Numbered from the stretch's first letter, positions 295-15,392 are shown. The stretch is 15,912 nt of DNA from Acaryochloris thomasi RCC1774 (GCF_003231495.1 NZ_PQWO01000047.1:1-15912); one strand, 5' to 3'. Made by a program: numbers and translations. The notes: a model not told the origin generated them from the sequence alone.

Positions 295-1044
295 ATGGCT
301 CGGTCTTCCTCGGCACAGGCAACATCAGAGATTACAGCGGCTGATGCCCAGGCTTTTATTCAATTGAACGGTCTCAGTAAGTCTTTTCAGGAAGGAGTTG
401 CTGACCGGCAAGTTCTTAGAGAAATCACGACCTCCTTTACGGCGGGAGAATTTGTTGTGCTTTTGGGACAAAGCGGGAGCGGTAAAAGTACGCTCCTTAA
501 CTTAGTCAGCGGCATTGAGCGGCCGACAACGGGACGAATCATCATTGATGGCGTTTGTCTCTCTGACTTGAATGAGCGACGATGCACTTTATTCCGTCGC
601 GATCGCATCGGCTTTATTTTTCAATTCTTTAATTTGATTCCGACCTTGACGGTGCTAGAGAACATTACGCTGCCACAAGAGTTAGCAGGCGTGCCCCAAG
701 CAGAGGTGAAAAAGAAAGCAATCGCACTTCTAGAGCGAGTGGGATTGGGCGACCGTGGGGAAACTTTCCCGGATAAGCTCTCGGGCGGACAGCAGCAGAG
801 GGTCGCGATTGCGCGGGCATTGGTTCATGACCCAATGCTGGTGTTAGCAGATGAACCGACCGGGAATCTAGATGAAGAGACAGGGGAGACGGTTCTAGAG
901 CTGCTGCTGGAGCTGACGCGCTCCGCCCATAAAACATTGATCATGGCGACCCACAATCCAGATATTGCTCAGCGGGCCGACCGGGTGCTGCGAATGCACG
1001 ATGGACAATTGGCAGAAGAGACAGTTCAGGATGTTCGCTCATGA
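295..1044 (+). CDS. ABC transporter ATP-binding protein, MacB/LolD-type
   Basis: 249-aa ORF with AGGA about 10 nt upstream of ATG 295. Walker [10 protein letters not shown] (nt 466-492). [18 protein letters not shown] region typical of MacB/LolD-type ATPases. ABC signature [15 protein letters not shown], Walker [15 protein letters not shown]-loop MATHN. The stop overlaps the next start (ATGA at 1041-1044). Confidence 0.92.
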
Positions 1045-3671
1045 TCGGTACAGAGGCAGCGACAGAACTCCGTAGCTCCAATCGCCCTCTTTGGCGGATG
1101 GCTTGGCGGCGCTTTAGGATGCGATCGCTTCAATATTTTTTGTGTCTAATCGGGGTCGCTCTCGGTGTGGCGATGATGGTGTCCATTGATCTAGCCAATG
1201 GATCGGCGCAGACGGCTTTCGAGTTGTCTACAGATGCGATCGCAGGTCGAGCCACCCATCAAATTGAAGCGCTGGCACCGGCAGGGATCAATGAGTCGGT
1301 GTATACAAAGATCCGGCGGGAGTTAGGGGGCGTGACGGTGGCCCCTATCGTTGACGGCTACGTCCTTGCACCTGACTTGGGTAACCAGCCCATGCGGTTG
1401 GTGGGAGTCGATCTGTTCGCAGAATCTCCCTTTCGCAACTATTTCGTTCCACAGAATCGGACAGTGGGTGAAGCGGGACTCCTCAACTTTTTGACACAGC
1501 CAAATACAGTAGTACTGGGCGCAGACGTGGCCGACCGCTATCAGGTGGCGCTGGGAGATCAAATCACGTTAGATCTCTCGGGGCGGCTGGAAACCGTAAC
1601 CGTTGTAGGAACAGTACAGCCGGAGAGTTCCACTACCCGTCGAGCCTTGAGCAGTTTGCTATTTACGGATATTGCCACGGCTCAGGAAGTTTTGGAGATG
1701 CCGGGGCATCTGAGCCACATCGATTTAATCTCAAGATCTGAGGCGGATTTGGCAGCAGTGGAGCAACTATTGCCGGAGGGGATCCAGCTTGAGACAGCGG
1801 CAGCGCAGAAAAATGCCGTGCGGCAGATGACGGCGGCCTTTCGGCTAAATTTGACGGCCCTAAGTCTGCTAGCGCTGGTAGTGGGAATGTTTTTGATCTA
1901 CAACACGGTCACCTTCAGCGTGGTGCAGCGACGGCCCTTATTCGGCGTGCTGCGCTGCTTGGGAACGACGCCGGGACAGCTATTCGTCTTGATTATGGGT
2001 GAGTCAGCCATCTTAGGCGTGCTCGGTTCCGCAGTGGGATTAGGACTGGGTGTGGTACTGGCCCGCAGCATTGTGGGGTTAATTACCCAGACGATTAATG
2101 ATTTTTACTTTGTCGTCAGCGTGCAGCAGGTCGCTATTTCTTCACTTTCTCTGATCAAGGGATTCAGTATCGGAGTGGCTTCAGCATTACTGGCTTCTCT
2201 GGTTCCGGCATTGGAGGCGATGCAGACCAGCCCGCAGACGATTCTGCAGCGCTCTTCATTAGAGAATAAAGTACAGCGACTGCTGCCTTGGTTGGTTTTG
2301 ACCTGGGGGCTGACGACGGTGGCGGGCATTCTGCTGCTGCGGATGCAGGCAGGTTTAGTGGTGGCGTTTTCGGGCTTGTTCTCAATTTTGTTGGGGGCAG
2401 CGCTGCTGACGCCGCCGATTACCACTGCGCTGATGCGAGTGGTGCAGCCTTTGACTGGGCGGCTAGGCGTTTTGGGACGACTGGCTCCTCGGGATATTAT
2501 TCGATCTTTGAGCCGGACTTCAGTTGCGATCGCAGCTCTCATGGTCGCCGTCTCCGTGATCGTGGGCGTCTCAATCATGGTCGGTTCGTTCCGGGTAACG
2601 GTGGTGCAGTGGCTTGACCAAACGCTGCAGGCCGATATCTATGTGTCCCCCCCCAGCACAACGGCTAATCGGGTCTTAGGGCAGCTCGACCCATCTGTCG
2701 TGGGTGAGATTAAGCGCTGGCCGGGGTTAGAAGAAGTGGTTACCTACAACGACGCCGACGCAACGGTGACGGCATTCAATTATGGCGAAGGACAAGATCT
2801 ATCCACAGTTGAAGTAGACAGACCCGTCAAGCTAATTTCTGCGGGGGGCGATGTTTCACATGGGCAGCGGCCCTACGCTTGGAAGAAAGAGCCGGGGACA
2901 GATCCCTGGGCAGCGCTCGATCGAGGGGAGGGCGTGATTATTTCAGAAGCGTTGATGCTCAAGGCCAGTCTGACAGAGCCGCCGACTTCCATTGTGATCA
3001 AGAGTCCACAGGGACCGCAGACCTTTCCGGTGGTGGCGGTGTTTTACGACTATTCGTCAGATGTAGGGACAATGATTCTGGACGACGATCTGTTTATTCA
3101 AAGCTGGGAAGACGATGGTGTGGCTTCCTTGGGCTTGTTTGCCCAGCCCGGATTTGAAGCAGATGATGTTGTAGACGAGCTGCGACAGCATTTCCAAGGC
3201 CGTACAGATGTGACCATTCAGTCTACGCGTAGCCTCAAAGATGGTTCCATCGAGATCTTTGATCGGACCTTTGCCATTACCCAGGCGCTGCGTTTGCTAG
3301 CCGTGATTGTGGCTTTTATCGGGGTTCTTAGTGCACTGATGAGCCTACAGCTAGAGCGATCCCGTGAAATCGGCATTCTGCGAGCCACCGGTATGACGCC
3401 GCGCCAGCTTTGGGGGTTGACGCTTCTTGAAACAGGACTAATGGGCAATGTTGCGGGGCTATTGGCGATGCCGCTGGGCTACGTGCTGGCCTGGATTTTA
3501 ATCTACGTCATCAACGTGCGATCCTTTGGCTGGACGCTGCAGATGCAGCTTAACCCCAGCTATTTTTGGCAAGCTTGGGCCGTGGCGGTGGTAGCGGCAC
3601 TGCTGGCGGGAATCTATCCAGCTTGGCGCTTGGGACGGGTCACAGTGGCAGCAGCAATTCGAGAAGAGTAA
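1041..3671 (+). CDS. ABC transporter permease, duplicated FtsX/MacB-like (876 aa)
   Basis: ATGA overlap with the upstream ATPase. N-terminal TM helix ([20 protein letters not shown]). Two long extracytoplasmic stretches, each followed by a TM cluster. Each cluster carries an FtsX-type cytoplasmic loop motif ([23 protein letters not shown] and [22 protein letters not shown]). Confidence 0.87.
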
Positions 3672-3718
3672 GGTCATCAGATATTTGCACAAGCCTTATC
3701 CATTCTTAAAGGATCAGG

Positions 3719-4111
3719 TTAGAGGTTTAATCGCTGTCGCTCTACGATGCGCTCATGAGTATTAAGCTTGAGTAAAGATATGGTGGTGCGCCCTTCTGTG
3801 GTTTTGCTGCTGATCTGGGCATTATGTCGGCTGAAATGATCGTTCCAACATTGCGTCCGAGGATTGAACAGAAAGCTAAAGTTTCCCGTTTCGGGGTCAA
3901 ACGAGCCAAGATCAGTCCCTTTGTGACGATTACAGCGCCAGCACGCGTAGGCCAAATTCTCTGCTGTTGTTTTGCCGCCGTGTTTGCGGGCAATGATGTG
4001 ATCGACTTCATGGGGATAAAAACTGGCATCGTTCGGCAGTAAGCAATATTCACAGCAATAATTGGCCTGATCCTTAACTTGGCGACGGAGTAAGGCGGGA
4101 ATATTTGTCAC
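3719..4111 (-). CDS. HNH (beta-beta-alpha-Me) endonuclease, 130 aa
   Basis: GTG start overlapping the upstream stop (GTGA; plus-strand tcac at 4108-4111). Full HNH signature: C20-x2-C23, H34-E-V-D37-H38, N52, C57-W-R-C60-N61-R-H63-K-G (nt 3920-4057). The C-terminal extension PRTQCWNDHF...GRTTISLLKLN is typical of small stand-alone HNH proteins. Confidence 0.87.
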   Translation of the reverse strand: MTNIPALLRRQVKDQANYCCEYCLLPNDASFYPHEVDHIIARKHGGKTTAENLAYACWRCNRHKGTDLGSFDPETGNFSFLFNPRTQCWNDHFSRHNAQISSKTTEGRTTISLLKLNTHERIVERQRLNL

Positions 4112-4461
4112 GATTCAGCCATTGCTGAGAGATAGGGGAGGTTGCCAGATTTAAGCAAAATAATGAGATGTTCAATCTGTTCATATTCGTCTAACTCTTG
4201 ACATTCCTCTGACGTGATTGTTTCTGCTGCATTCCGATCTAGAAGATATGTCAGACGCTGCTGCATTTCTGTGGTGGGCCGAAAGTCAGCAATCTGATCC
4301 GGGGTGGGCTGGCTAGCAAGAAAGTCGAGAATGTAGCGATAAACTTGAGCAGATAGTGTGGCTGGTTGCAGGCAGCGGCGCAGCAGCTCAGGGATTTGAT
4401 CGCGGATGGGGGCGACTTGTTCCATTAGATCGTCGGGGATTTCAATCGTGAGTGTAGCCAT
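4108..4461 (-). CDS. Small acidic helical protein, putative antitoxin/immunity partner of the HNH nuclease (117 aa; the alternative upstream ATG at 4488 gives 126 aa)
   Basis: The ORF ends 4 nt inside the HNH start. ATG at 4461 is preceded by AGGGAGAAG about 8 nt upstream, whereas ATG 4488 has no SD. The N-terminus MATLTIEIPDDL resembles cyanobacterial antitoxin-like proteins. By hand count there are 20 D/E against 8 K/R. Confidence 0.6.
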   Translation of the reverse strand: MATLTIEIPDDLMEQVAPIRDQIPELLRRCLQPATLSAQVYRYILDFLASQPTPDQIADFRPTTEMQQRLTYLLDRNAAETITSEECQELDEYEQIEHLIILLKSGNLPYLSAMAES

Positions 4462-4632
4462 TGGGTACTTCTCCCTAGCAAATCGCATTTGGTTAGGAGC
4501 ATATGATAGCCCCCTCTATTTTCAGAGTTATCCAGATCTGGCTCTTGGGGTAACATGAGTACCTCCAGGGTAAATTACAAATCTTGTTGTGAGCGAAGCT
4601 GAGCAAACCTATCAGCAATGCAGTGTTGAAAA

Positions 4633-5757
4633 ATGCAAATATTGAAATGGCTAGCAGGACTATCGCTGATCCTGTTGTTAATAGTCTCTCCTGTTTGGGC
4701 AGTAGAGCAGGGAAATGTCCAGTGGTTAGAGCCTGCCGAAACGCCCGCTTTCAAGAAAGCGATCGCACCTGTTCCCCTCAAGTTCCCGCAGGATTTTGGC
4801 CCCCATGAGGACTATCAAACAGAGTGGTGGTATTACACGGGAAACTTAGAGACCGAGACCGGACGACCCTTTGGCTATGAGCTGACACTGTTTCGTCGGG
4901 GTCTAACAACCGGTGAAGCGGAGCCGGGATCCCTGTGGCGCAGTAATCAGATTTATTTTGCACACTTCACCCTCAGCGATATCCAAGATCAGAATTTTTA
5001 TCCGCAGGAGCGCTTTAGTCGAGGAGCCGCCGGTTTAGCCGGAGCACAGGCAGATCCCTATCGGCTGTGGCTTGATGACTGGTCGATTGAAGCCACATCA
5101 CCCGAACAAGTGCAGCTCCAGGCTAAAGGAGAAGAAGTCTCGTTGGATTTGACCCTGTCGCTGACAAAGCCAGTACTCCAGGGCGATCGCGGCTACAGTG
5201 CCAAAGGCTCCGAACCGGGAAATGCTTCTTACTACTATTCGGTGGTTCAACAGCCCACAACGGGCACGGTCACAGTACAGGGAGAAAGCTATCCTGTCTC
5301 AGGCTCGAGCTGGACTGATCATGAGTATTCCACCAGCGCTCTCAGCGAAGGAACCGAGGGCTGGGATTGGTTTTCACTGGAACTAGACGATGGATCTGCC
5401 CTCATGCTCTACGGCTTGCGAACGGCAGACAACAACACGACGCCAGAATCTAACGGCACTTACATTAGCCCTGAGGGAAAGGTCATGCATCTCAACCGCG
5501 AGGATTTTGAGATCGATGTGCTGAAAACTTGGAAAAGTCCACAATCTCAGGCCGTTTATCCAGCCAAGTGGGATATTGCGATTCCTCGATTGGATCTCAA
5601 TGCTAAGGTGTCTCCGTTAATAAACAATCAAGAGCTACTGTTCTCGACAACTTACTGGGAAGGGGCTGTGAAGCTTTCCGGCTCTCGTTCTCAGCAAGTG
5701 ATCAAAGGCAAAGGATATGTTGAACTCACTGGCTATGAGCGAAGCTTGGCACTCTAA
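4633..5757 (+). CDS. Secreted AttH / CrtC-like (hydroxyneurosporene-synthase fold) lipocalin-like domain protein
   Basis: 374-aa ORF with signal peptide MQILKWLAGLSLILLLIVSPVWA/VEQ. The motif HEDYQTEWWYYTGNL...FGYELTLFR is characteristic of the AttH/CrtC N-terminal domain. The C-terminal half is beta-rich. This family is classically linked to MacB-type ABC transporters (Agrobacterium attE-H). Confidence 0.78.
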   Translation: MQILKWLAGLSLILLLIVSPVWAVEQGNVQWLEPAETPAFKKAIAPVPLKFPQDFGPHEDYQTEWWYYTGNLETETGRPFGYELTLFRRGLTTGEAEPGSLWRSNQIYFAHFTLSDIQDQNFYPQERFSRGAAGLAGAQADPYRLWLDDWSIEATSPEQVQLQAKGEEVSLDLTLSLTKPVLQGDRGYSAKGSEPGNASYYYSVVQQPTTGTVTVQGESYPVSGSSWTDHEYSTSALSEGTEGWDWFSLELDDGSALMLYGLRTADNNTTPESNGTYISPEGKVMHLNREDFEIDVLKTWKSPQSQAVYPAKWDIAIPRLDLNAKVSPLINNQELLFSTTYWEGAVKLSGSRSQQVIKGKGYVELTGYERSLAL

Positions 5758-6480: not shown

Positions 6481-7395
6481 ATGGATTTTGCAGGCGCGCT
6501 GCCGGTTTTTGTCATTACTCTTAGAGAAGGGGTCGAAGCAGCACTTGTAGTCGGCATTGTCCTCGCAGCTTTAACCAAAAGTCGCAAAGATGACCTAATT
6601 CCCTGGGTCTATTGGGGTATTTTGGCTGGAATTGGGGGCAGTTTACTGATCGGGCAACTGCTGAGTTGGGGACTTCGTAAAGTTGGAGAAGTTAATCCTC
6701 AGCTACAACCAGTGCTAGAGCCGTTCTTGAAAAGTGGACTTTGTGTGGTTGCGATCGCAATGCTGAGCTGGATGCTGATCTGGATGACCCAGCAATCCCA
6801 ATCCCTCAAAGGAGAGATCGAGAATTCTCTCACGTCCTCGCTACAGAGCAGTGCAGCGGGGTGGGGCGTTTTTACACTGGTGGGCATTGCTGTTCTGCGA
6901 GAGGGTTTTGAAACCGTCCTGTTCATTTTTGCCAATGCACAACAGAACTCAGCTGCATTAGGTGCCGTCCTTGGGTTATCCGGGGCCGTTGGCATTGGCT
7001 TTGCCCTGTTCAAATGGGGAATCAGAATTAACCTGCGTCGATTCTTTCAAGTGATGGGCATTTTTCTACTGCTCATTGTGGCCGGTCTCGTCATTTCTGC
7101 CCTCAAAAATATCGACGCAGCGATCTATGCCCTTAGTCTGCTCAAACCAGCCAATACCCTCTGTTTTTCTACCGATTCCTGCGTTCTGGGAGCGCTCGCC
7201 TGGGATGTCAGCGCCGTTTTGCCCGACAGCCAATTTCCGGGGGTTATCTTCAAAGCCCTGTTGGGATACCGCGACCACCTCTACTGGCTGCAGGTAATCA
7301 GCTATAGTCTATTCTTAACCATCGTTGGTACCTCATACCTTCGGAGCTTAGGTCAACCACCCGCCAAACTTTCGAACCATTCATCAGCATCGTAG
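6481..7395 (+). CDS. FTR1/EfeU-family high-affinity iron permease
   Basis: 304-aa polytopic membrane ORF with AGGAG 7 nt upstream of the ATG. It has the two hallmark REGxE motifs: REGVEA (nt 6523-6540) in TM1 and REGFET in TM4. Confidence 0.88.
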   Translation: MDFAGALPVFVITLREGVEAALVVGIVLAALTKSRKDDLIPWVYWGILAGIGGSLLIGQLLSWGLRKVGEVNPQLQPVLEPFLKSGLCVVAIAMLSWMLIWMTQQSQSLKGEIENSLTSSLQSSAAGWGVFTLVGIAVLREGFETVLFIFANAQQNSAALGAVLGLSGAVGIGFALFKWGIRINLRRFFQVMGIFLLLIVAGLVISALKNIDAAIYALSLLKPANTLCFSTDSCVLGALAWDVSAVLPDSQFPGVIFKALLGYRDHLYWLQVISYSLFLTIVGTSYLRSLGQPPAKLSNHSSAS

Positions 7396-7412
7396 GAACT
7401 TCCCTGAACCCC

Positions 7413-7847
7413 ATGAAAGATCTCGACACCTCAAAGACAACGGCCCTGCTTAACAGCATCATGGAATTTGAGCTGGCTGGTGTGGTTCGCTATACCCACT
7501 ATTCGCTCATGGTTACGGGGCCAAATAGAATTCCCATTGTTGATTTCTTCAAAGCTCAGGCTAGTGAATCACTGCTCCACGCTCAGGAAGCAGGAGAAAT
7601 CATCACGGGTCTAGAAGGACACCCAAGCCAACGCATCTCAACCATTGAAGAAACCCATCGTCACTCAGTCCAAGACCTGCTGCAGGAGAGCCTGAACCAC
7701 GAGCAAAAAGCCCTGCATTTATACAAAGAACTGCTGGATGTTGTAGAAGATGCCAGCATCTACCTAGAAGAATATACGCGCACCAAAATTGGTCAAGAAG
7801 AGATGCACAATCTCGAAATCAAGAAAATGCTCAGGGATTTTAGTTAA
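7413..7847 (+). CDS. Ferritin-like four-helix-bundle protein (bacterioferritin/Dps superfamily)
   Basis: 144-aa ORF 17 nt downstream of the FTR1 gene. It aligns by eye with bacterioferritin: LNSIMEFELAG matches LNKLLGNELVA, and ESLNHEQKAL and QEEMHNLE match the E94 and E127-x2-H130 regions. The first E/H pair has altered spacing (ESLLH), and there is no Met equivalent to the Bfr heme ligand. Confidence 0.72.
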   Translation: MKDLDTSKTTALLNSIMEFELAGVVRYTHYSLMVTGPNRIPIVDFFKAQASESLLHAQEAGEIITGLEGHPSQRISTIEETHRHSVQDLLQESLNHEQKALHLYKELLDVVEDASIYLEEYTRTKIGQEEMHNLEIKKMLRDFS

Positions 7848-8035
7848 CAGAAGCTGGGGGGCCACTTAATACTGTCTCCCCTCAATGGACTGCTTGTCAT
7901 GCGAAAGAGAGGCTGACCGTAACCCAGTCAATTGCAGGCATTATTGAGTAGCTTCGTTCCCCAAAATCGGGTCCAGAGAGCTGGAGTGATTTTGATATGG
8001 TAGATGGAAGCTTTTAGCAATCTGGGCTTAAGAAT

Positions 8036-9715
8036 TTGAAGGGATACACCGACCGGCTGAGTGGCTGGAAGAGTTTTAGGCAATTCAACGGTTGGACCGT
8101 TGGGGTGGTTGCGATCGCATCCTTAATTGCAACGCCAATCCTCGTGGTGCTAGCCAGCGTTTTTTCTAACCAAAGCAACACCTGGGGACATTTAGCATCT
8201 ACGGTGCTACCGCAATACATTCTTAATTCCTTTGGCTTGATGCTGGGCGTTGGCGCAGGCGTTTTGCTTTTGGGGGTCGGCACCGCTTGGCTGGTGACCC
8301 TCTGCTCCTTCCCTGGTAGCCGTTTTTTTGAATGGGCATTGCTGCTGCCCTTGGCAGCTCCTGCCTATTTGCTGGCCTATACCTATACCGAGTTTTTAGA
8401 TTATTACGGCCCGATACAGACGGCACTGCGGGGGGTATTTGGCTGGCAAAGCGCGACTGACTACTGGTTCCCCAATATTCGGTCTCTGTGGGGTGCGATC
8501 GCAATGCTGAGCCTGGTTCTCTACCCCTATGTTTATCTGCTTGCCAGAGTTGCTTTTTTAGAGCAGGCCACCTGTACCTTAGAGGCCAGTCGTGCCCTAG
8601 GGTGCAATCCTTGGCAGGGCTTTCGCCGAGTTGCCTTACCCTTGGCTCGTCCTGCGATCACCGCCGGTTTAGCGTTAGCACTCATGGAGACGCTGAATGA
8701 TTTTGGTACCGTGCAGTACTTTGGCGTCTCGACCTTTACGACGGGTATCTATCGCACCTGGTTCGGCAGCGGAGAACGTCAGGCCGCAGCCCAGTTAGCC
8801 GCCGTCTTGATGATGTTTATTTTGGGCCTCATTCTCCTGGAGCGCTGGTCTCGACGGCGGGCCCGCTACTATCAAACCAGCAGTAGTCAGCAGCAGCTCT
8901 CGACCTACAGACTTGTAGGTCTGCGGGCCTGCTTGGCCGTACTCGTTTGCCTGAGTCCCATCGTGCTGGGCCTCTTGATTCCCGGAGGGCTGCTGCTGCA
9001 GATGACGCTGAGTGAGAGAACCGCTCGCTTTAATCAGAGCTTTTTCGAGTTAGCCAACCACAGCCTACTGTTAGCTTCCGTGACGGCGGCCATTGCAGTT
9101 CTACTATCACTGTTTTTAGCCTATGGAGTCAGGCTGCAGGGCAACCCGCTGCTGCGGTTTGGCGTCCGTATTTCGTCGATGGGCTATGCCGTGCCGGGGT
9201 CAGTAATTGCGGTAGGAATTTTGATCCCGATCGCTTGGGTTGATAATTCACTCAATACCTGGATGACGAACACCTTTGGCTTCTCTACAGGGCTTTTGCT
9301 CAGCGGCACGGTTGTGGGGTTGGTTTTGGCCTATCTGGTCCGATTTTTGGCCGTATCCCTCAGCACTGTCGAGACCGGCCTCGGCAAAATTCGGCCGACC
9401 CTGGATGATGCCTCTCGCAGTTTAGGCCAGGGTACTGTCGGCACCTTGCGCAAGATCCATGTGCCGATTATGGAAGGGAGTCTGTTCACAGCGGTGATGC
9501 TGATCTTTGTGGACGTCATGAAAGAGCTCCCGGCCACCATTGTGATGCAGCCGTCTAACTTTGAGACCTTAGCAGTGCGGGTCTATCAATACGCCGAGGA
9601 TGAACGCCTGATTGAGGCGGCGGCTCCAGCTTTAGCAATTATTGTGGTAGGGCTACTGCCAGTGCTGTTGTTGAGCTGGCAAATTACGCGATCGCGTCAA
9701 AGAAGCACCAACTAA
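8036..9715 (+). CDS. futB: Fe(3+)-type ABC transporter permease, fused duplicate (FutB/FbpB/HitB-like)
   Basis: 559-aa ORF. The only in-frame start after the stop at 8015-8017 is TTG 8036. It has two homologous six-TM halves, each with an EAA loop (LEASRALGCNPWQGFRRVALPLARPAI; DDASRSLGQGTVGTLRKIHVPIMEGSL). The iron assignment is supported by the neighbouring FTR1 and ferritin-like genes, but a ThiP-like specificity cannot be excluded. Confidence 0.75.
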   Translation: MKGYTDRLSGWKSFRQFNGWTVGVVAIASLIATPILVVLASVFSNQSNTWGHLASTVLPQYILNSFGLMLGVGAGVLLLGVGTAWLVTLCSFPGSRFFEWALLLPLAAPAYLLAYTYTEFLDYYGPIQTALRGVFGWQSATDYWFPNIRSLWGAIAMLSLVLYPYVYLLARVAFLEQATCTLEASRALGCNPWQGFRRVALPLARPAITAGLALALMETLNDFGTVQYFGVSTFTTGIYRTWFGSGERQAAAQLAAVLMMFILGLILLERWSRRRARYYQTSSSQQQLSTYRLVGLRACLAVLVCLSPIVLGLLIPGGLLLQMTLSERTARFNQSFFELANHSLLLASVTAAIAVLLSLFLAYGVRLQGNPLLRFGVRISSMGYAVPGSVIAVGILIPIAWVDNSLNTWMTNTFGFSTGLLLSGTVVGLVLAYLVRFLAVSLSTVETGLGKIRPTLDDASRSLGQGTVGTLRKIHVPIMEGSLFTAVMLIFVDVMKELPATIVMQPSNFETLAVRVYQYAEDERLIEAAAPALAIIVVGLLPVLLLSWQITRSRQRSTN

Positions 9716-9792
9716 TTAGAATATTTGAAAGTGGCGGCTTACAACCTTGTGACGGCAGGTCCTTGAAGAGTGCATCAGTTCAGGAGAAAGCG

Positions 9793-10212
9793 ATGGACGA
9801 TTGGTTAAAGCAGATACAGGGCGAATTTAGCACGATCACGCGAGATGTGGATAACCTACTCTGGGAGATGGCAAAGCAGGGTGGAAAAGCCACGGAGCAG
9901 CTACTCGATAGCTCTTTAGAGGCGATGGATGATATAGAGGAGCGGGTCGCTCCTGTCTTCGGAGATTTAAGCGACCGCCTAGACCAAACATTAGAAACCC
10001 AATTTCTTTATCTGGACCAGCACTTAACGCCCTGGCTGGAAGAAGTCTCTGCACCCGTCACTCAGACTATTAATCCCTGGCTACAGGACCATTCAGCCTG
10101 CATTGGCTGTCGTCACTATCACGGTATGGCCTACGGTAATAACATCTTAGTATGTGCGATGTATCCCTATGGTCCAGAGTCTGATGCCTGCAAAGACTGG
10201 GACTCTGTTTGA
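9793..10212 (+). CDS. Hypothetical helical protein with C-terminal Cys4 motif (139 aa; TTG 9763 is an alternative start)
   Basis: ATG 9793 is preceded by AGGAG (9782-9786). The C-terminus is C-IG-C-RHYHG-x10-LVCAMYPYGPESDAC-KDW (nt 10099-10191). This is a CxxC...C...C module recurrent at C-termini of cyanobacterial proteins. Confidence 0.6.
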   Translation: MDDWLKQIQGEFSTITRDVDNLLWEMAKQGGKATEQLLDSSLEAMDDIEERVAPVFGDLSDRLDQTLETQFLYLDQHLTPWLEEVSAPVTQTINPWLQDHSACIGCRHYHGMAYGNNILVCAMYPYGPESDACKDWDSV

Positions 10213-10399
10213 ACCGACAGCGCTTCAGAGAAATAGAGAAATCTATAGGGGTGCGATCGCAACTCCAACTCATGATTTGAGCGCGCCTTCAACGACCGCA
10301 GCACATCTTTACCCAAGCTCACCCCTTAAAAAGAGTTCAAGGCTGATACAGAACCCATCTTCTTGGGAACACTGCAATACGAGAGCAGAAGAGCCTGTT

Positions 10400-10759
10400 A
10401 TGAACCAGCAAGACATATTGAATCAAATTGTTGCAGAGTTCCATAAAGATCCTGGCAATCAAATCATCATTGGAATGACTGAACTGACTGAGTTTGCGTC
10501 AGAAGAAATAGGCAAGGAAGTAACGCCAGAAGATTTATGTGAAGCGTTACAGGCACATCACAACGAGCAAGCTGGAGAAGAGCATCTGAACATCGTAGAT
10601 GCAGCATCAGCACTCTGTAATCAAGTGGCGGATCGCTGCTGGGGTGAGTGCTTAGATGAAGACTACGATGAATGGGATGAGGTTGACATCAGCATCGATT
10701 GGGAAGATGTTGATCTAAATACTTCGGACAACCTGTACGCCACAATCAGGCCGTGCTGA
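10400..10759 (+). CDS. Hyper-acidic hypothetical protein (119 aa)
   Basis: An internal ATG of the 201-aa track ORF was chosen as the start. The 82 upstream codons overlap the previous gene, are P/S/T-rich and contain a HIP1 site. The protein from MNQQDILNQ is D/E-rich (ECLDEDYDEWDEVDISIDWEDVDLN). Confidence 0.5.
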   Translation: MNQQDILNQIVAEFHKDPGNQIIIGMTELTEFASEEIGKEVTPEDLCEALQAHHNEQAGEEHLNIVDAASALCNQVADRCWGECLDEDYDEWDEVDISIDWEDVDLNTSDNLYATIRPC

Positions 10760-11714: not shown

Positions 11715-11766
11715 TTAGGTCTCAGACAACCCTCGTAGATTGAAGGTATCGAGGTTGGAGAACCAA

Positions 11767-12075
11767 ATGATAAACAAGAAAAGCCACCAAATTAATACCG
11801 CTCTTGTTGGACTCGCCGTTGCTATCCTTGGCTTAACGACGGGCCGCACGGTTGAAGCGAAAACCCTTGATCACGCCATTGAGAACCAGTCAGAGACGCA
11901 GCTGGTTGCCCTCAAGTTCAAGAAGTTTAAGAAAGGCCACCACGGTCACAAAAAATTCCATCACAGTCCGAAGCGATTCAAGAAAGTGAAGAAGATCCAC
12001 CGCGGTCACGACAAATTTCATGGCAAGAAATTTGTTGGCCACAAGAACTTCCATCATGGTCACCATTTTCGTTAG
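11767..12075 (+). CDS. Secreted His/Lys/Phe-rich (histatin-like) low-complexity protein, putative periplasmic metal-binding protein
   Basis: ATG 11767 is preceded by GGAGAA; the track start TTG 11740 is less likely. Signal peptide MINKKSHQINTALVGLAVAILGLTTGRTVEA/KT. By hand count the mature part has 14 His, 17 Lys and 8 Phe. The motif H-x-G-H-x-K-F-H recurs (HHGHKKFHH, HRGHDKFHG, VGHKNFHHGHH). Confidence 0.65.
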   Translation: MINKKSHQINTALVGLAVAILGLTTGRTVEAKTLDHAIENQSETQLVALKFKKFKKGHHGHKKFHHSPKRFKKVKKIHRGHDKFHGKKFVGHKNFHHGHHFR

Positions 12076-12878: not shown

Positions 12879-15392
12879 TCAGACGATTAGCCGCCAAAGA
12901 CCTGCGGCCAGACCAATCGTGGTCAAATGCTGGGGCATAAGAGTCCAGAATGATTGACGGCCGATTTTCTGAGTTAACAGCAGGGTTAGAACGACTGCGG
13001 CCATCAACGTTGACCCCTGCAAAAAGTTGATGACGGCCGGATGGGCTACCAAAATCGGCAGGTCAATACTCGAGAGACCAAAGGTCGCTAGCGTAATCGG
13101 TAAAATTTGCCCCGCCTCGGTTAAGCCCAAGTCAAGGTAGTGAGCTAGGCTGCTGCCAAGGACGAGCGGGAGGTAGCCATAGGCCATCTCGACAAAAGGG
13201 CGGGGCTTTCTCTGTAAGGAATATTGAAACCTGTAGGTGATTAGAGGGATTAGAGATGCGATCGCAAGCACACCAACAGACACCCCTAAGTGCGGCCAAA
13301 ACTCACCTAAGCGCAAATTGACCGGCAGCAGCGACTCGATCTCCGGCAACCGATGCAGGAAAATACCGCCCAGCAACAGCAGCAGCAGCGCCACCTCATA
13401 GCTACGGGGCTGATGGGTCGTCCACAGCTCAATCCCAGGGGGGCGCAGATTCACCTCAACCGAGCGATGGGGACAAGCCTTGAGGCAGGTCATACACAAT
13501 ACACAGTCTCGATTTTCCTCTAGCTGAGCGGGATGAGAATAGATCGGACAGCCGTTCGTTTCTTGTCCCTCACCCTTTTCAGGACCGCCCTTGTAGCACT
13601 GGTAGGTACTGCACTCCGCCGAACAGGTGCCCTGCTGGGCGCGCAGCTCGGTCATCGAAAGTTTGGCAAACAGGCCGTTCATCCCACCAATCGGGCACAG
13701 GTAGCGGCACCAAAAGCGACGCTCAAAGATCACGGAAAAAATTACTGCCCCCGCCGTAATCAACAGCAGCAGACAGCTCGACAGATAGGCCGTATTCTCT
13801 AGATTCCATAGCTCCTCCCAGAGGAAGATCAGCACAAATAAACTGTAGAGAAACCAGCCGCCCCATCGTTCCGCTTCCTGGCGAGGCCAGCTTTTGAGCT
13901 GCCGGGGCACCAGCCACAGCGACAGCTTTTGCGCCACCTCGCCATAGATCATGAATGGACAGACCGAACACCACAAACGACCTACGAACGGAAAGCTGAG
14001 CAGCACCAACGGCCACCACCAAGCCCAAAACAAATTGAGAGCTACGTTCTGATCACGCTGCTGCGGCCCTAAGAACAGCAGCAGGACAACGAGGGCAAAA
14101 GCCGTGAGCGTAAAGCCGTAGTTAATGCGGGTGGGCCACCAGTCACTACGCAGAAACGCGCGAAGTCCTGGATAGGCATTCAGTAAGTTCAGTCGGAACC
14201 GCTGCTTAGGTGCTTGAGCTGGCCAAAACAATTCTTCCGTCAGGTTACAGCTGCCAGAAACCTGAGCCATCGCTCGCTCAATCAATCCCTGCAATTCGGC
14301 TAAATTACCAGGGAAGCTATAGGCCTGCAGTCGTCTGAGAGCGGTCGAGGAAATACCGCGCCTCGAGATACCCTGCTCTTGGGCAGTCAGGCTAATGTAA
14401 TAGCTAACCTGCGTCTTCATGTCAGCCTTGCGAACCCGCAGCGGCGGTACTTTAATGGAGTGCCCGACCCAGCCATCAATCTCAGGGAGAACCTGCTCAG
14501 AAACCATCATGATCCGAGCCTGTGTTTTTTGAGGTGCTACTTGAGAATCACGCGAGACAGGAGTATAGCTTTCGGTCTCCAGAAGAACCTGAAGCTTTTG
14601 CTGTAGCTCTTTTGGTAGCTCTTGAATATTGTTGAGAACGAGGGTGCCCTGCCCCAAGGCTTTTAAAAAACCAGGCTGCCCTCCTGCTCGGCCAAAGAGT
14701 TCGGCCCCGCTAGCCTGTAGCGTTCTGCAGTTGACCTGAATAATTGGCTCGCGTCGCCACTGAGAGCCAAAGTGAATCAGAGCCGCTGCATTATCTTTTT
14801 CCAGACCGGGTTCACCAAAAACGAGGACGGAGCTGCGATCTTGACTGGCCTCCTGAATTTGCTGGCGGAGTTTACTCGCATAGCGGCTCTTGCCGACAAT
14901 GCCGCGCTGCGCTCGAGGGACAAGATAGGGGCGCAGAATGGTCTGTCGTTCCTGCTCTTGGGCAAGCTGTGCCGAGACCTCAGCCAGGTCTTGCGATAAC
15001 TGTCGTGAAACAAGCTGCACCATCTCAGGATGCTGGACTGCAATCTCAAGGAACTCAGCTTTGGGAATCATCCATAGCTGGCAATCTGTAAGGGTAATCG
15101 CCGTATACTGGGTCGGCTGCTCTAGCAGGAGTTCATTAAGGTGCAGAACGGTGCCGGGTAAGAGACTGCTGGCCCAGGCCGCACTTTTTTCATGGGTGCG
15201 ATATTGTTCCATTCTGCCTTCGTACAGAATGTACAGGGCATCTGGCTGCGTATCTTCTAGGACGAGTCGCCGATTTTCCGCAACGCTAATCTCCTGAAGC
15301 GATGGGGCCAGGGCTTTGAGGATGGGTTCAGGGAAGAGGTTGAGTTGAGATCGCTCTTTTAGCCAGATGATAGACTGCTTTGGAGATTCCAT
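12879..15392 (-). CDS. Multidomain protein: cNMP-binding-like domain + sigma54-activator-type AAA+ domain (degenerate) + NapH/NosR-like polytopic 4Fe-4S membrane domain
   Basis: 837-aa uninterrupted ORF with GAGGA 6 nt upstream of the ATG. aa 8-135 form a CNB-like beta-roll (nt 14988-15371). aa 160-380 align by eye along their length with NtrC central domains (VLVFGEPGLEKD, ELFG, GTLVLNNI, ARIMMVSE, VPPLRVRKADM, FPGNLAELQGLIERA). aa 420-837 contain about 9 TM helices with CSVCP (nt 13956-13970), CRYLCP (13692-13709), CSAECSTYQC...GCP and the ferredoxin motif CVLCMTCLKACP (13470-13505). Confidence 0.85.
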   Translation of the reverse strand: MESPKQSIIWLKERSQLNLFPEPILKALAPSLQEISVAENRRLVLEDTQPDALYILYEGRMEQYRTHEKSAAWASSLLPGTVLHLNELLLEQPTQYTAITLTDCQLWMIPKAEFLEIAVQHPEMVQLVSRQLSQDLAEVSAQLAQEQERQTILRPYLVPRAQRGIVGKSRYASKLRQQIQEASQDRSSVLVFGEPGLEKDNAAALIHFGSQWRREPIIQVNCRTLQASGAELFGRAGGQPGFLKALGQGTLVLNNIQELPKELQQKLQVLLETESYTPVSRDSQVAPQKTQARIMMVSEQVLPEIDGWVGHSIKVPPLRVRKADMKTQVSYYISLTAQEQGISRRGISSTALRRLQAYSFPGNLAELQGLIERAMAQVSGSCNLTEELFWPAQAPKQRFRLNLLNAYPGLRAFLRSDWWPTRINYGFTLTAFALVVLLLFLGPQQRDQNVALNLFWAWWWPLVLLSFPFVGRLWCSVCPFMIYGEVAQKLSLWLVPRQLKSWPRQEAERWGGWFLYSLFVLIFLWEELWNLENTAYLSSCLLLLITAGAVIFSVIFERRFWCRYLCPIGGMNGLFAKLSMTELRAQQGTCSAECSTYQCYKGGPEKGEGQETNGCPIYSHPAQLEENRDCVLCMTCLKACPHRSVEVNLRPPGIELWTTHQPRSYEVALLLLLLGGIFLHRLPEIESLLPVNLRLGEFWPHLGVSVGVLAIASLIPLITYRFQYSLQRKPRPFVEMAYGYLPLVLGSSLAHYLDLGLTEAGQILPITLATFGLSSIDLPILVAHPAVINFLQGSTLMAAVVLTLLLTQKIGRQSFWTLMPQHLTTIGLAAGLWRLIV

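Follow-up and report, generated by a model that had tools for sequence, protein, structure and literature searches.

How electrons pass from ferredoxin to plastoquinone in cyclic electron flow is still debated. Work by Xu, Liu and Zhao in 2005 reportedly found that FesM from Synechococcus sp. PCC 7002, a cyanobacterium, is required for photoheterotrophic growth, and the protein is said to carry an N-terminal cyclic AMP (cAMP)-binding-type domain, two cytoplasmic 4Fe-4S motifs and about nine transmembrane (TM) helices. To our knowledge, an AAA+ module, a pseudo-enzyme state, a degenerate cyclic nucleotide monophosphate (cNMP) cassette and algal orthologs form no part of the FesM description. 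Going by the title of its original report and the role given for it in PMC9003380, FesM is a membrane iron-sulfur (Fe-S) protein required for photosystem I cyclic electron flow. Here we analyze a gene for a FesM-like membrane Fe-S protein in a 15,912-nucleotide stretch of DNA from Acaryochloris thomasi RCC1774 (GCF_003231495.1 NZ_PQWO01000047.1:1-15912), referred to below as the window. The gene lies at 12879-15392 on the minus strand and is an ATG-to-stop open reading frame (ORF) of 837 codons plus the stop.

The exact protein is already on record for A. thomasi RCC1774 under the name “Nitrogen fixation protein VnfA” (homology search), which is a mis-naming, and hundreds of cyanobacterial and algal genomes label the protein “sigma 54-interacting transcriptional regulator”, “VnfA” or “nitrogen assimilation regulatory protein”. 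Such labels invite wrong regulatory inferences in a phylum that lacks sigma-54, as is generally held, also in a first-pass annotation of this sequence, and is stated in the literature (PMC5408793, PMC11345509). The gene product is not a transcription factor. On balance, we favor the reading that it is a FesM-type membrane Fe-S oxidoreductase linking the plastoquinone pool and a cytoplasmic donor by electron transfer, and that its pseudo-activator/CRP-like half serves as a scaffold or a non-hydrolytic switch.

Domain architecture of the protein

The first-pass annotation had described a single 837-residue ORF, with no strand given, that fuses a cNMP-binding-like sensor, a sigma-54-activator-type AAA+ core and a membrane polyferredoxin related to NapH and NosR, the last in place of the usual DNA-binding helix-turn-helix (HTH) domain. 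Both the frame and the three-part architecture were borne out. Matches in Pfam, all of which exceeded the curated cut-offs, were found to cNMP_binding (PF00027; residues 36-120, E 2.3e-13, 50.4 bits versus a cut-off of 27.5), Sigma54_activat (PF00158; residues 165-300, E 1.2e-16), AAA_lid_14 (residues 319-382, E 2.7e-10) and, in two stretches, Fer4_5 (E 4.4e-9). In NCBIfam, the NapH/MauN model TIGR02163 aligned with residues 469-647 (E 1.7e-14 for the whole protein and 4.5e-15 for the C-terminal part alone), at a score of 55.9 bits that is far under the family cut-off of 213. Residues 133-394 aligned with many enhancer-binding-protein models, every score again being far under its cut-off. No HTH domain was detected in the profile scans, and residues ~418-837 form a polytopic membrane protein with nine TM helices.

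The protein thus divides into four regions: a cNMP-binding fold, a sigma-54-activator-type AAA+ module with its lid, a NapH-like Fe-S module with four TM helices and two cluster motifs, and five further TM helices. An AlphaFold2 model (mean predicted local distance difference test score, pLDDT, 81.7) places a long linker helix, residues 123-156 (14925-15026, minus strand), between the beta-barrel domain and the AAA+ module.

The membrane and Fe-S half

The NapH-like membrane core (residues 418-556; 13725-14141, minus strand) comprises TM1-TM4, as delimited by the NCBIfam match, the model and the topology, and has a cysteine pair, C475-SV-C478-P, at the cytoplasmic end of TM2. It is followed by a cytoplasmic Fe-S domain (residues 557-663; 13404-13724, minus strand), defined by motifs and conservation, which contains C562-RYL-C566-P, C590-x3-C-x4-C-x15-C615-P and C630-x2-C-x2-C-x3-C640-P. 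The first-pass annotation had correctly identified the last of these as a classical CxxCxxCxxxCP motif. Its two CxxCP motifs were in fact one CxxCP and one CxxxCP, and it had not listed the atypical second cluster set. Given this second, unusually spaced set (C590x3Cx4Cx15C615P) beside the classical one, two clusters are expected. All 12 cysteines of the four motifs are invariant in the alignment, even in paralogs of 25-30% identity. The remaining residues, 664-837 (12882-13403, minus strand), form a C-terminal bundle of five TM helices (TM5-TM9) in the model and the topology, for which Pfam and structure searches returned no recognizable family and no structural match.

Conservation is concentrated in this half. 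In comparisons of the query with 224 orthologs, the Fe-S domain had a median identity of 92%, with 74% of its columns at least 98% conserved. Median identity elsewhere was 80% in TM1-4, 60% in TM5-9, ~60% in the AAA+ module (62% in the alpha/beta subdomain and 56% in the lid) and 44% in the cNMP-like domain, the least conserved part.

The AlphaFold2 model has four TM helices ahead of the Fe-S domain and five after it. Combined lysine and arginine counts were 3/3/12/3/2 in the predicted cytoplasmic loops versus 1/0/1/0 in the outer loops, so that the positive-inside rule fits a predicted topology with the N-terminus inside, nine TM helices and the C-terminus outside. In such a topology, as in NapH, the cytoplasmic face would carry both cluster motifs and both cysteine pairs, together with the N-terminal domains.

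The N-terminal half

The motifs of the N-terminal half were assessed in 225 cyanobacterial orthologs and 86 distant paralogs. The strands of the cNMP beta-barrel (residues 36-120; 15033-15287, minus strand) are modelled at pLDDT >90. Its phosphate-binding cassette (residues 83-97), however, is degenerate, reading LHLNELLLEQPTQYT here versus FGEMSLLTGEPRSAT in distant paralogs. Across the 225 orthologs the consensus is [IL][HN]LxELLLxQPxQxT, in which the canonical Gly, Glu, Arg and Ser contacts are all replaced, and in the distant paralogs it is FGEM[AS]LLTGEP[R]SA, with the Arg kept in 33 of 86. Since these four ligand-contact residues have been lost, canonical cNMP binding, and with it canonical cNMP sensing, is unlikely on the evidence of the motifs.

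The AAA+ alpha/beta subdomain (residues 165-318; 14439-14900, minus strand) was delimited by Pfam, alignment and Foldseek. With the model as query, Foldseek matched the AAA+ part to NtrC1, PspF, FleQ, VpsR and NtrX (E 1e-12 to 1e-9). The target-normalized TM-score (TMt) was ~0.7 for NtrC1, PspF and FleQ when their AAA+ domains stood alone, and ~0.4-0.47 for longer multidomain chains such as NtrX (~0.42), DmpR and VpsR. By sequence, VpsR was the best match among solved structures (E 4e-21).

The fold is retained and the active-site motifs are altered. The Walker A remnant (14793-14816, minus strand) reads GEPGLEKD where the canonical motif is GESGTGKE; E198 replaces the last P-loop glycine in 212 of 225 orthologs, and K199 and D200 are invariant (225/225). 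In the Walker B remnant, TLVLNN (14628-14645, minus strand; canonical hhhhDE), the Asp-Glu pair has become Asn-Asn (N254 in 225 and N255 in 223 of 225). At residue 299, the sensor I position, the orthologs have an invariant Glu in place of Asn. Residues 294-318 contain no conserved Arg, the arginine-finger segment being 11 residues shorter than in distant paralogs, and the L1 loop that carries GAFTGA is deleted throughout the orthologous clade (FGRAGG----QPGF in the query alignment). In the lid (residues 319-382; 14247-14438, minus strand), the sensor II position reads GNLAEL; it is Ala in the A. thomasi protein, and Arg in 136 and Ala in 49 of the 225 orthologs. The distant paralogs are less altered in the P-loop, which is mostly a canonical GExGTGK (G in 56 of 86), and are degenerate in L1 (GAIPSA, GAFAEA) and in Walker B ([E/K/R][N/H], n=86) as well.

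The P-loop substitution, the Asn-Asn Walker B, the sensor I Glu and the missing arginine finger together make ATP hydrolysis unlikely. The motif states argue that both sigma-54 contact and ATP hydrolysis by the N-terminal half are very unlikely, and that this half would be a conserved pseudo-enzyme. Because the replacement Walker residues are near-invariant, the pocket is nevertheless still under selection. Focus should accordingly shift from cAMP/ATP regulation to the Fe-S/quinone chemistry and to scaffold or ligand-switch roles of this pseudo-ATPase and pseudo-cNMP receptor.

These motif states bear directly on the function that the first-pass annotation had suggested, in which an oligomeric membrane redox module is gated or assembled by a nucleotide-sensor ring. 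Spelled out, this would be an active AAA+ ring under cAMP or cGMP control and driven by ATP. Both folds are indeed present and well modelled, the Walker A lysine is kept, and some distant paralogs retain the canonical P-loop glycine (56/86) or the cassette arginine (33/86). The orthologs, however, have lost the cassette contacts, the P-loop glycine, the Walker B acidic pair, the sensor I Asn, the arginine finger and the L1 loop, a state conserved across the 225, and even the distant paralogs have a degenerate Walker B. We therefore regard an active ring as highly improbable. The accompanying claim that the AAA+ core cannot do its canonical sigma-54 job was upheld by the deletion of the GAFTGA loop and the lack of a DNA-binding domain.

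The database label of a sigma-54-dependent activator (VnfA, NtrX or “sigma 54-interacting transcriptional regulator”) fares still worse. All that speaks for it is the Pfam and NCBIfam similarity of residues 133-394, at scores far under the equivalog cut-offs. Against it stand the missing HTH domain and GAFTGA loop, the nine TM helices, the dead ATPase motifs, a host phylum without sigma-54 and orthologs in algal nuclear genomes, by which this identity is effectively refuted.

Longer variants of 1115-1121 residues (P0006-P0008, for example in Trichocoleus desertorum) carry the linker helix and the degenerate AAA+ module in tandem duplicate. Copy 1 has GEAGVGK and LVLDH, copy 2 has GEPGLGKD and LLLNN, and GAFTGA is found in neither. 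We considered whether the extra module is a canonical activator domain and rejected this, as it is a duplicate of the degenerate one. Such variants may bear on how the AAA+ module oligomerizes.

Conservation and distribution of the fusion

We scanned genomes, one per species, and obtained at least 600 pattern matches, at least 569 of which encode a relative; the loci discussed below are the best 80. These 80 relatives are all cyanobacterial, are 62-71% identical to the A. thomasi protein and cover essentially its whole length, while the identity of orthologs across cyanobacterial orders is ~60-71%. An intact fused ORF of 830-901 residues runs across the junction in 80/80 loci. A frameshift or stop near the junction, making two genes of one, had been raised as a possible artefact in the first-pass annotation. 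We reject it, as the intact fusion is found in all 80 loci and the algal orthologs are likewise fused. The fusion is real and ancient.

Outside the cyanobacteria, the nearest relatives among the matches listed are encoded in the nuclear genomes of green algae (43-55% identity), and Chromera velia also has a nuclear-encoded one. The algal orthologs listed come from Trebouxia, Coccomyxa, Micractinium, Chlamydomonas incerta, Volvox, Gonium, Ostreococcus, Picocystis and the streptophyte alga Klebsormidium. According to Pfam, the algal proteins retain the AAA+, lid and Fer4_5 domains, and the cNMP domain is found in some only. In both algal orthologs that were aligned (Trebouxia and Picocystis), the Walker motifs are altered in a similar way. 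No land plants were among the 120 matches listed in a homology search. This pattern suggests transfer from the plastid ancestor and later loss. A search of the Chlamydomonas literature for the algal ortholog found nothing.

More distant relatives were found in a library of 50%-identity representatives, where 418 proteins matched at E <=1e-30. Many of these are full-length paralogs of 25-33% identity, from sources including Armatimonadota, Chloroflexota and Syntrophus, and some have gained GAF domains. The architecture is not rare: hundreds of cyanobacterial genomes encode it, as do algae, and distant paralogs carry it in other bacterial phyla. The identity of 60-71% across orders, the 92% in the Fe-S domain and the survival of the gene in algal nuclei indicate that the protein does something important.

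Proposed function

The FesM-type reading starts from what the sequences show: the architecture, the logic of the topology, the states of the motifs, the pattern of conservation and the phyletic spread. In this mechanism, a soluble reductant of the cytoplasm or stroma, for which reduced ferredoxin is the most plausible candidate, would donate electrons to the two clusters, and the electrons would travel via the cysteine-pair region to the plastoquinone pool, or in reverse, feeding photosystem I cyclic and respiratory electron flow. The N-terminal half, with its CRP-like beta-barrel, long helix and AAA+ module, would be an oligomerization or regulatory scaffold and no ATP-driven motor. A role in cyclic flow agrees with the phenotype reported for FesM of PCC 7002, and the only genetics of the family known to us links it to cyclic electron flow.

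A bolder form of this proposal, which we consider a long shot, is that the family acts directly as a ferredoxin:plastoquinone oxidoreductase and so provides the NDH-independent entry to cyclic electron flow that has long been sought. It would have been kept from cyanobacteria to chromerids and green algae, with an apparent loss in land plants, and the dead AAA+ module would act as a fixed oligomeric platform (ring or dimer) for donor docking, with a non-hydrolytic ligand switch that sets activity.

Several points weigh against the FesM-type reading. FesM is very probably the closest characterized protein and is a putative ortholog; PCC 7002 does not appear among the 120 matches listed in searches from the A. 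thomasi protein or from a Pleurocapsales ortholog. That the protein binds clusters and couples to quinone is inferred, as are its donor, the direction of electron transfer and the link to cyclic flow. The Fe-S region is poorly modelled by AlphaFold2 (pLDDT <50). Among solved structures, no relative of the membrane half was found by sequence, the best matches being generic ferredoxin motifs at E >=0.1. A fold search with a C-terminal-only model yielded nothing significant either (best E 0.54), a weak negative because that model is of low confidence (pLDDT 59). The altered nucleotide pocket may still bind a nucleotide or another ligand without hydrolyzing it. Finally, the genomic context gives little direction: ORF clustering in the 80 loci revealed no conserved neighbors of the cyanobacterial orthologs, only synteny local to Nostoc, and the contexts of seven distant paralogs are heterogeneous, with nuo/cyd genes adjoining only one of the seven.

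Gene neighborhood and the rest of the window

That one distant paralog, P0246 (L081:1-13130, from a Syntrophus-like genome), is flanked on the same strand by nuoH-I-J-K-L-M-N and by cydA-cydB, a quinone-pool context, with a gene for a 204-residue protein of unknown function directly upstream. A second, P0154 (L087:8001-11531, with the same region in L088), is followed on the same strand by a gene for a redox-sensing repressor of the Rex type (Put_DNA-bind_N and CoA_binding domains). In two unrelated contigs, a gene for a small membrane protein (~140 residues, with about four hydrophobic segments by eye) is immediately downstream of the distant paralog (L084:10542-10952 and L089:4122-4565). The two small proteins are 35% identical (E 3e-12), and no such protein occurs near the cyanobacterial orthologs or in the window. 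In L089, a CHASE2 cyclase gene is also found ~5 kb away. Taken together, the contexts of the distant paralogs are suggestive, if anecdotal, of quinone-pool or redox biology.

The Rex-type gene and the cyclase bring up a quite unlikely alternative, that of a membrane-tethered redox sensor, in which the clusters report the state of the quinone or ferredoxin pool and the pseudo-AAA+/CRP-like half signals by binding a partner, with no bulk electron flux. NosR was originally seen in a similar light, as a “regulator”. It would be in keeping with the frequent use of pseudo-enzymes as scaffolds or switches, with the invariance of the altered nucleotide pocket itself, with the GAF domains added in distant paralogs and with VpsR as the best sequence match among solved structures. 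Yet Pfam identified no output domain and the 80 loci no conserved partner gene, and conservation peaks in the Fe-S/TM core, as is typical of a catalytic electron-transfer site.

The window contains an iron-handling cluster at 6481-9715 on the plus strand, consisting of genes for an FTR1 permease (6481-7395), a ferritin-like/Dps-type protein (7413-7847) and a FutB-like permease with a double BPD_transp_1 domain (8036-9715). These genes are 3-6 kb from the gene studied here and are not kept beside it in the 80 other loci. They are probably coincidental neighbors, because the cyanobacterial orthologs have no conserved ones.

Proximity to iron genes could otherwise be taken to indicate a CcoG-like metal or cofactor reductase, or an assembly redox relay. 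Reduction of Cu(II), Fe(III) or a thiol target would then take place at the membrane, for delivery to photosynthetic or respiratory metalloproteins, and any effect on cyclic flow would be indirect. Two 4Fe-4S motifs are also found in the CcoG/FixG cupric reductase, a membrane protein that shares the membrane-proximal cysteine-pair domain of Pfam, and the Fer4_5/NapH superfamily, to which the membrane core of the A. thomasi protein belongs, also includes metal reductases. In Synechocystis, slr0593 and slr1529 are candidate orthologs from annotation strings only, and these possible counterparts respond to iron and copper stress. However, besides the lack of a conserved iron-gene neighborhood, no CcoG-type NCBIfam model matched the C-terminal part at E <=1, versus 4.5e-15 for NapH/MauN; the FixG_C domain of CcoG/FixG is absent; and the protein has no periplasmic or lumenal metal-binding domain. 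We judge this alternative unlikely, and retain the FesM-type electron carrier as the preferred reading.

The HIP1 octamer GCGATCGC, noted in the first-pass annotation as a cyanobacterial signature, occurs 12 times in the window versus 0.33 expected (for example at 599, 1121 and 13258), with one copy inside the gene studied. Rfam and tRNA scans of the window found nothing, and a scan for promoters and terminators around the gene gave no result above chance.

Other genes of the window are as follows. On the plus strand at 295-5757 are a MacB-type ABC ATPase (295-1044), a fused FtsX/MacB_PCD permease (1041-3671) and a CrtC/lipocalin-type protein (4633-5757). On the minus strand at 3719-4488, 4 nucleotides are shared between an HNH endonuclease gene (3719-4111) and an upstream ORF of 126 residues (4108-4488) that has no Pfam match; the two may form a two-gene mobile or defence module. 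Two overlapping ORFs lie at 9763-10759 on the plus strand (9763-10212 and 10154-10759), the first having no Pfam match and a Cys-rich C-terminus (…CIGCRHYHG…C…C…). An ORF of 111 residues at 11740-12075 on the plus strand, with a hydrophobic, signal-peptide-like N-terminus and a His/Lys-rich tail (…HGHKKFHHSPKRFKKVKKIHRGHDKFHGKKFVGHKNFHHGHHFR), may encode a secreted metal-binding peptide.

Comparison with known systems

The best NCBIfam match of the membrane half is NapH/MauN (TIGR02163, PRK09477; E 4.5e-15). Like these proteins, it has four TM helices, of which TM2 and TM4 each bear a Cys-x(2-3)-Cys-Pro motif at the cytoplasmic end, followed by a C-terminal cytoplasmic domain with two 4Fe-4S motifs, all eight cysteines of these putative clusters being invariant here. 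The four helices and both cysteine-pair motifs are likewise present and invariant. It differs in that its first motif is CxxCP where theirs is CxxxCP, in the unusual Cx3Cx4Cx15CP spacing of one cluster motif, and in having five extra C-terminal TM helices and ~400 extra N-terminal residues. Furthermore, its score of 55.9 bits contrasts with the cut-off of 213, and no nap, mau or NapG context was seen in the 80 loci.

The membrane Fe-S flavoproteins NosR/NirI and RdhC/PceC share the Fer4_5-type membrane Fe-S core, with a weak match to the NosR model (E 1e-4), and are electron-transfer proteins that were once annotated as “regulators”. Unlike them, the protein described here has no periplasmic flavin mononucleotide (FMN)-binding domain and no nos/rdh association, and its N-terminal extension is cytoplasmic rather than periplasmic. 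By analogy, the membrane core would act like the NapH/MauN/NosR class of quinone-linked Fe-S proteins, outside their score thresholds and genomic context.

The AAA+ module shares its subfamily fold and lid with the enhancer-binding proteins NtrC1, PspF, NtrX and FleQ (Pfam E 1e-16; TMt ~0.7 for isolated domains). It departs from them in having no GAFTGA loop, arginine finger, Walker B DE or HTH domain, and in its altered P-loop and sensor I. Judged by its motifs, the module appears to be an enhancer-binding-protein derivative that falls short of that family on every functional criterion. VpsR of Vibrio cholerae is related to the enhancer-binding proteins and is itself ligand-controlled and sigma-54-independent. 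In the alignment it too is without GAFTGA and has a variant Walker B, LLLND, but it is a soluble DNA-binding regulator with a receiver domain and has no membrane or Fe-S part. The family studied here is a clear case of an enhancer-binding-protein module reused outside transcription.

FesM, also a cyanobacterial integral-membrane Fe-S protein, is alike in its cNMP-type domain, cytoplasmic Fe-S motifs and nine helices, features that match FesM only as it is said to be built. The first-pass annotation knew of no characterized example of this function, which is probably wrong, as FesM of PCC 7002, a putative ortholog, fits the family. Measured against these systems, the A. thomasi gene does not represent a new kind of system; it is a real member of a known and barely understood family, mis-annotated and little studied. 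What may be new is the conservation of a pseudo-ATPase and pseudo-cNMP state, along with the orthologs in algae.

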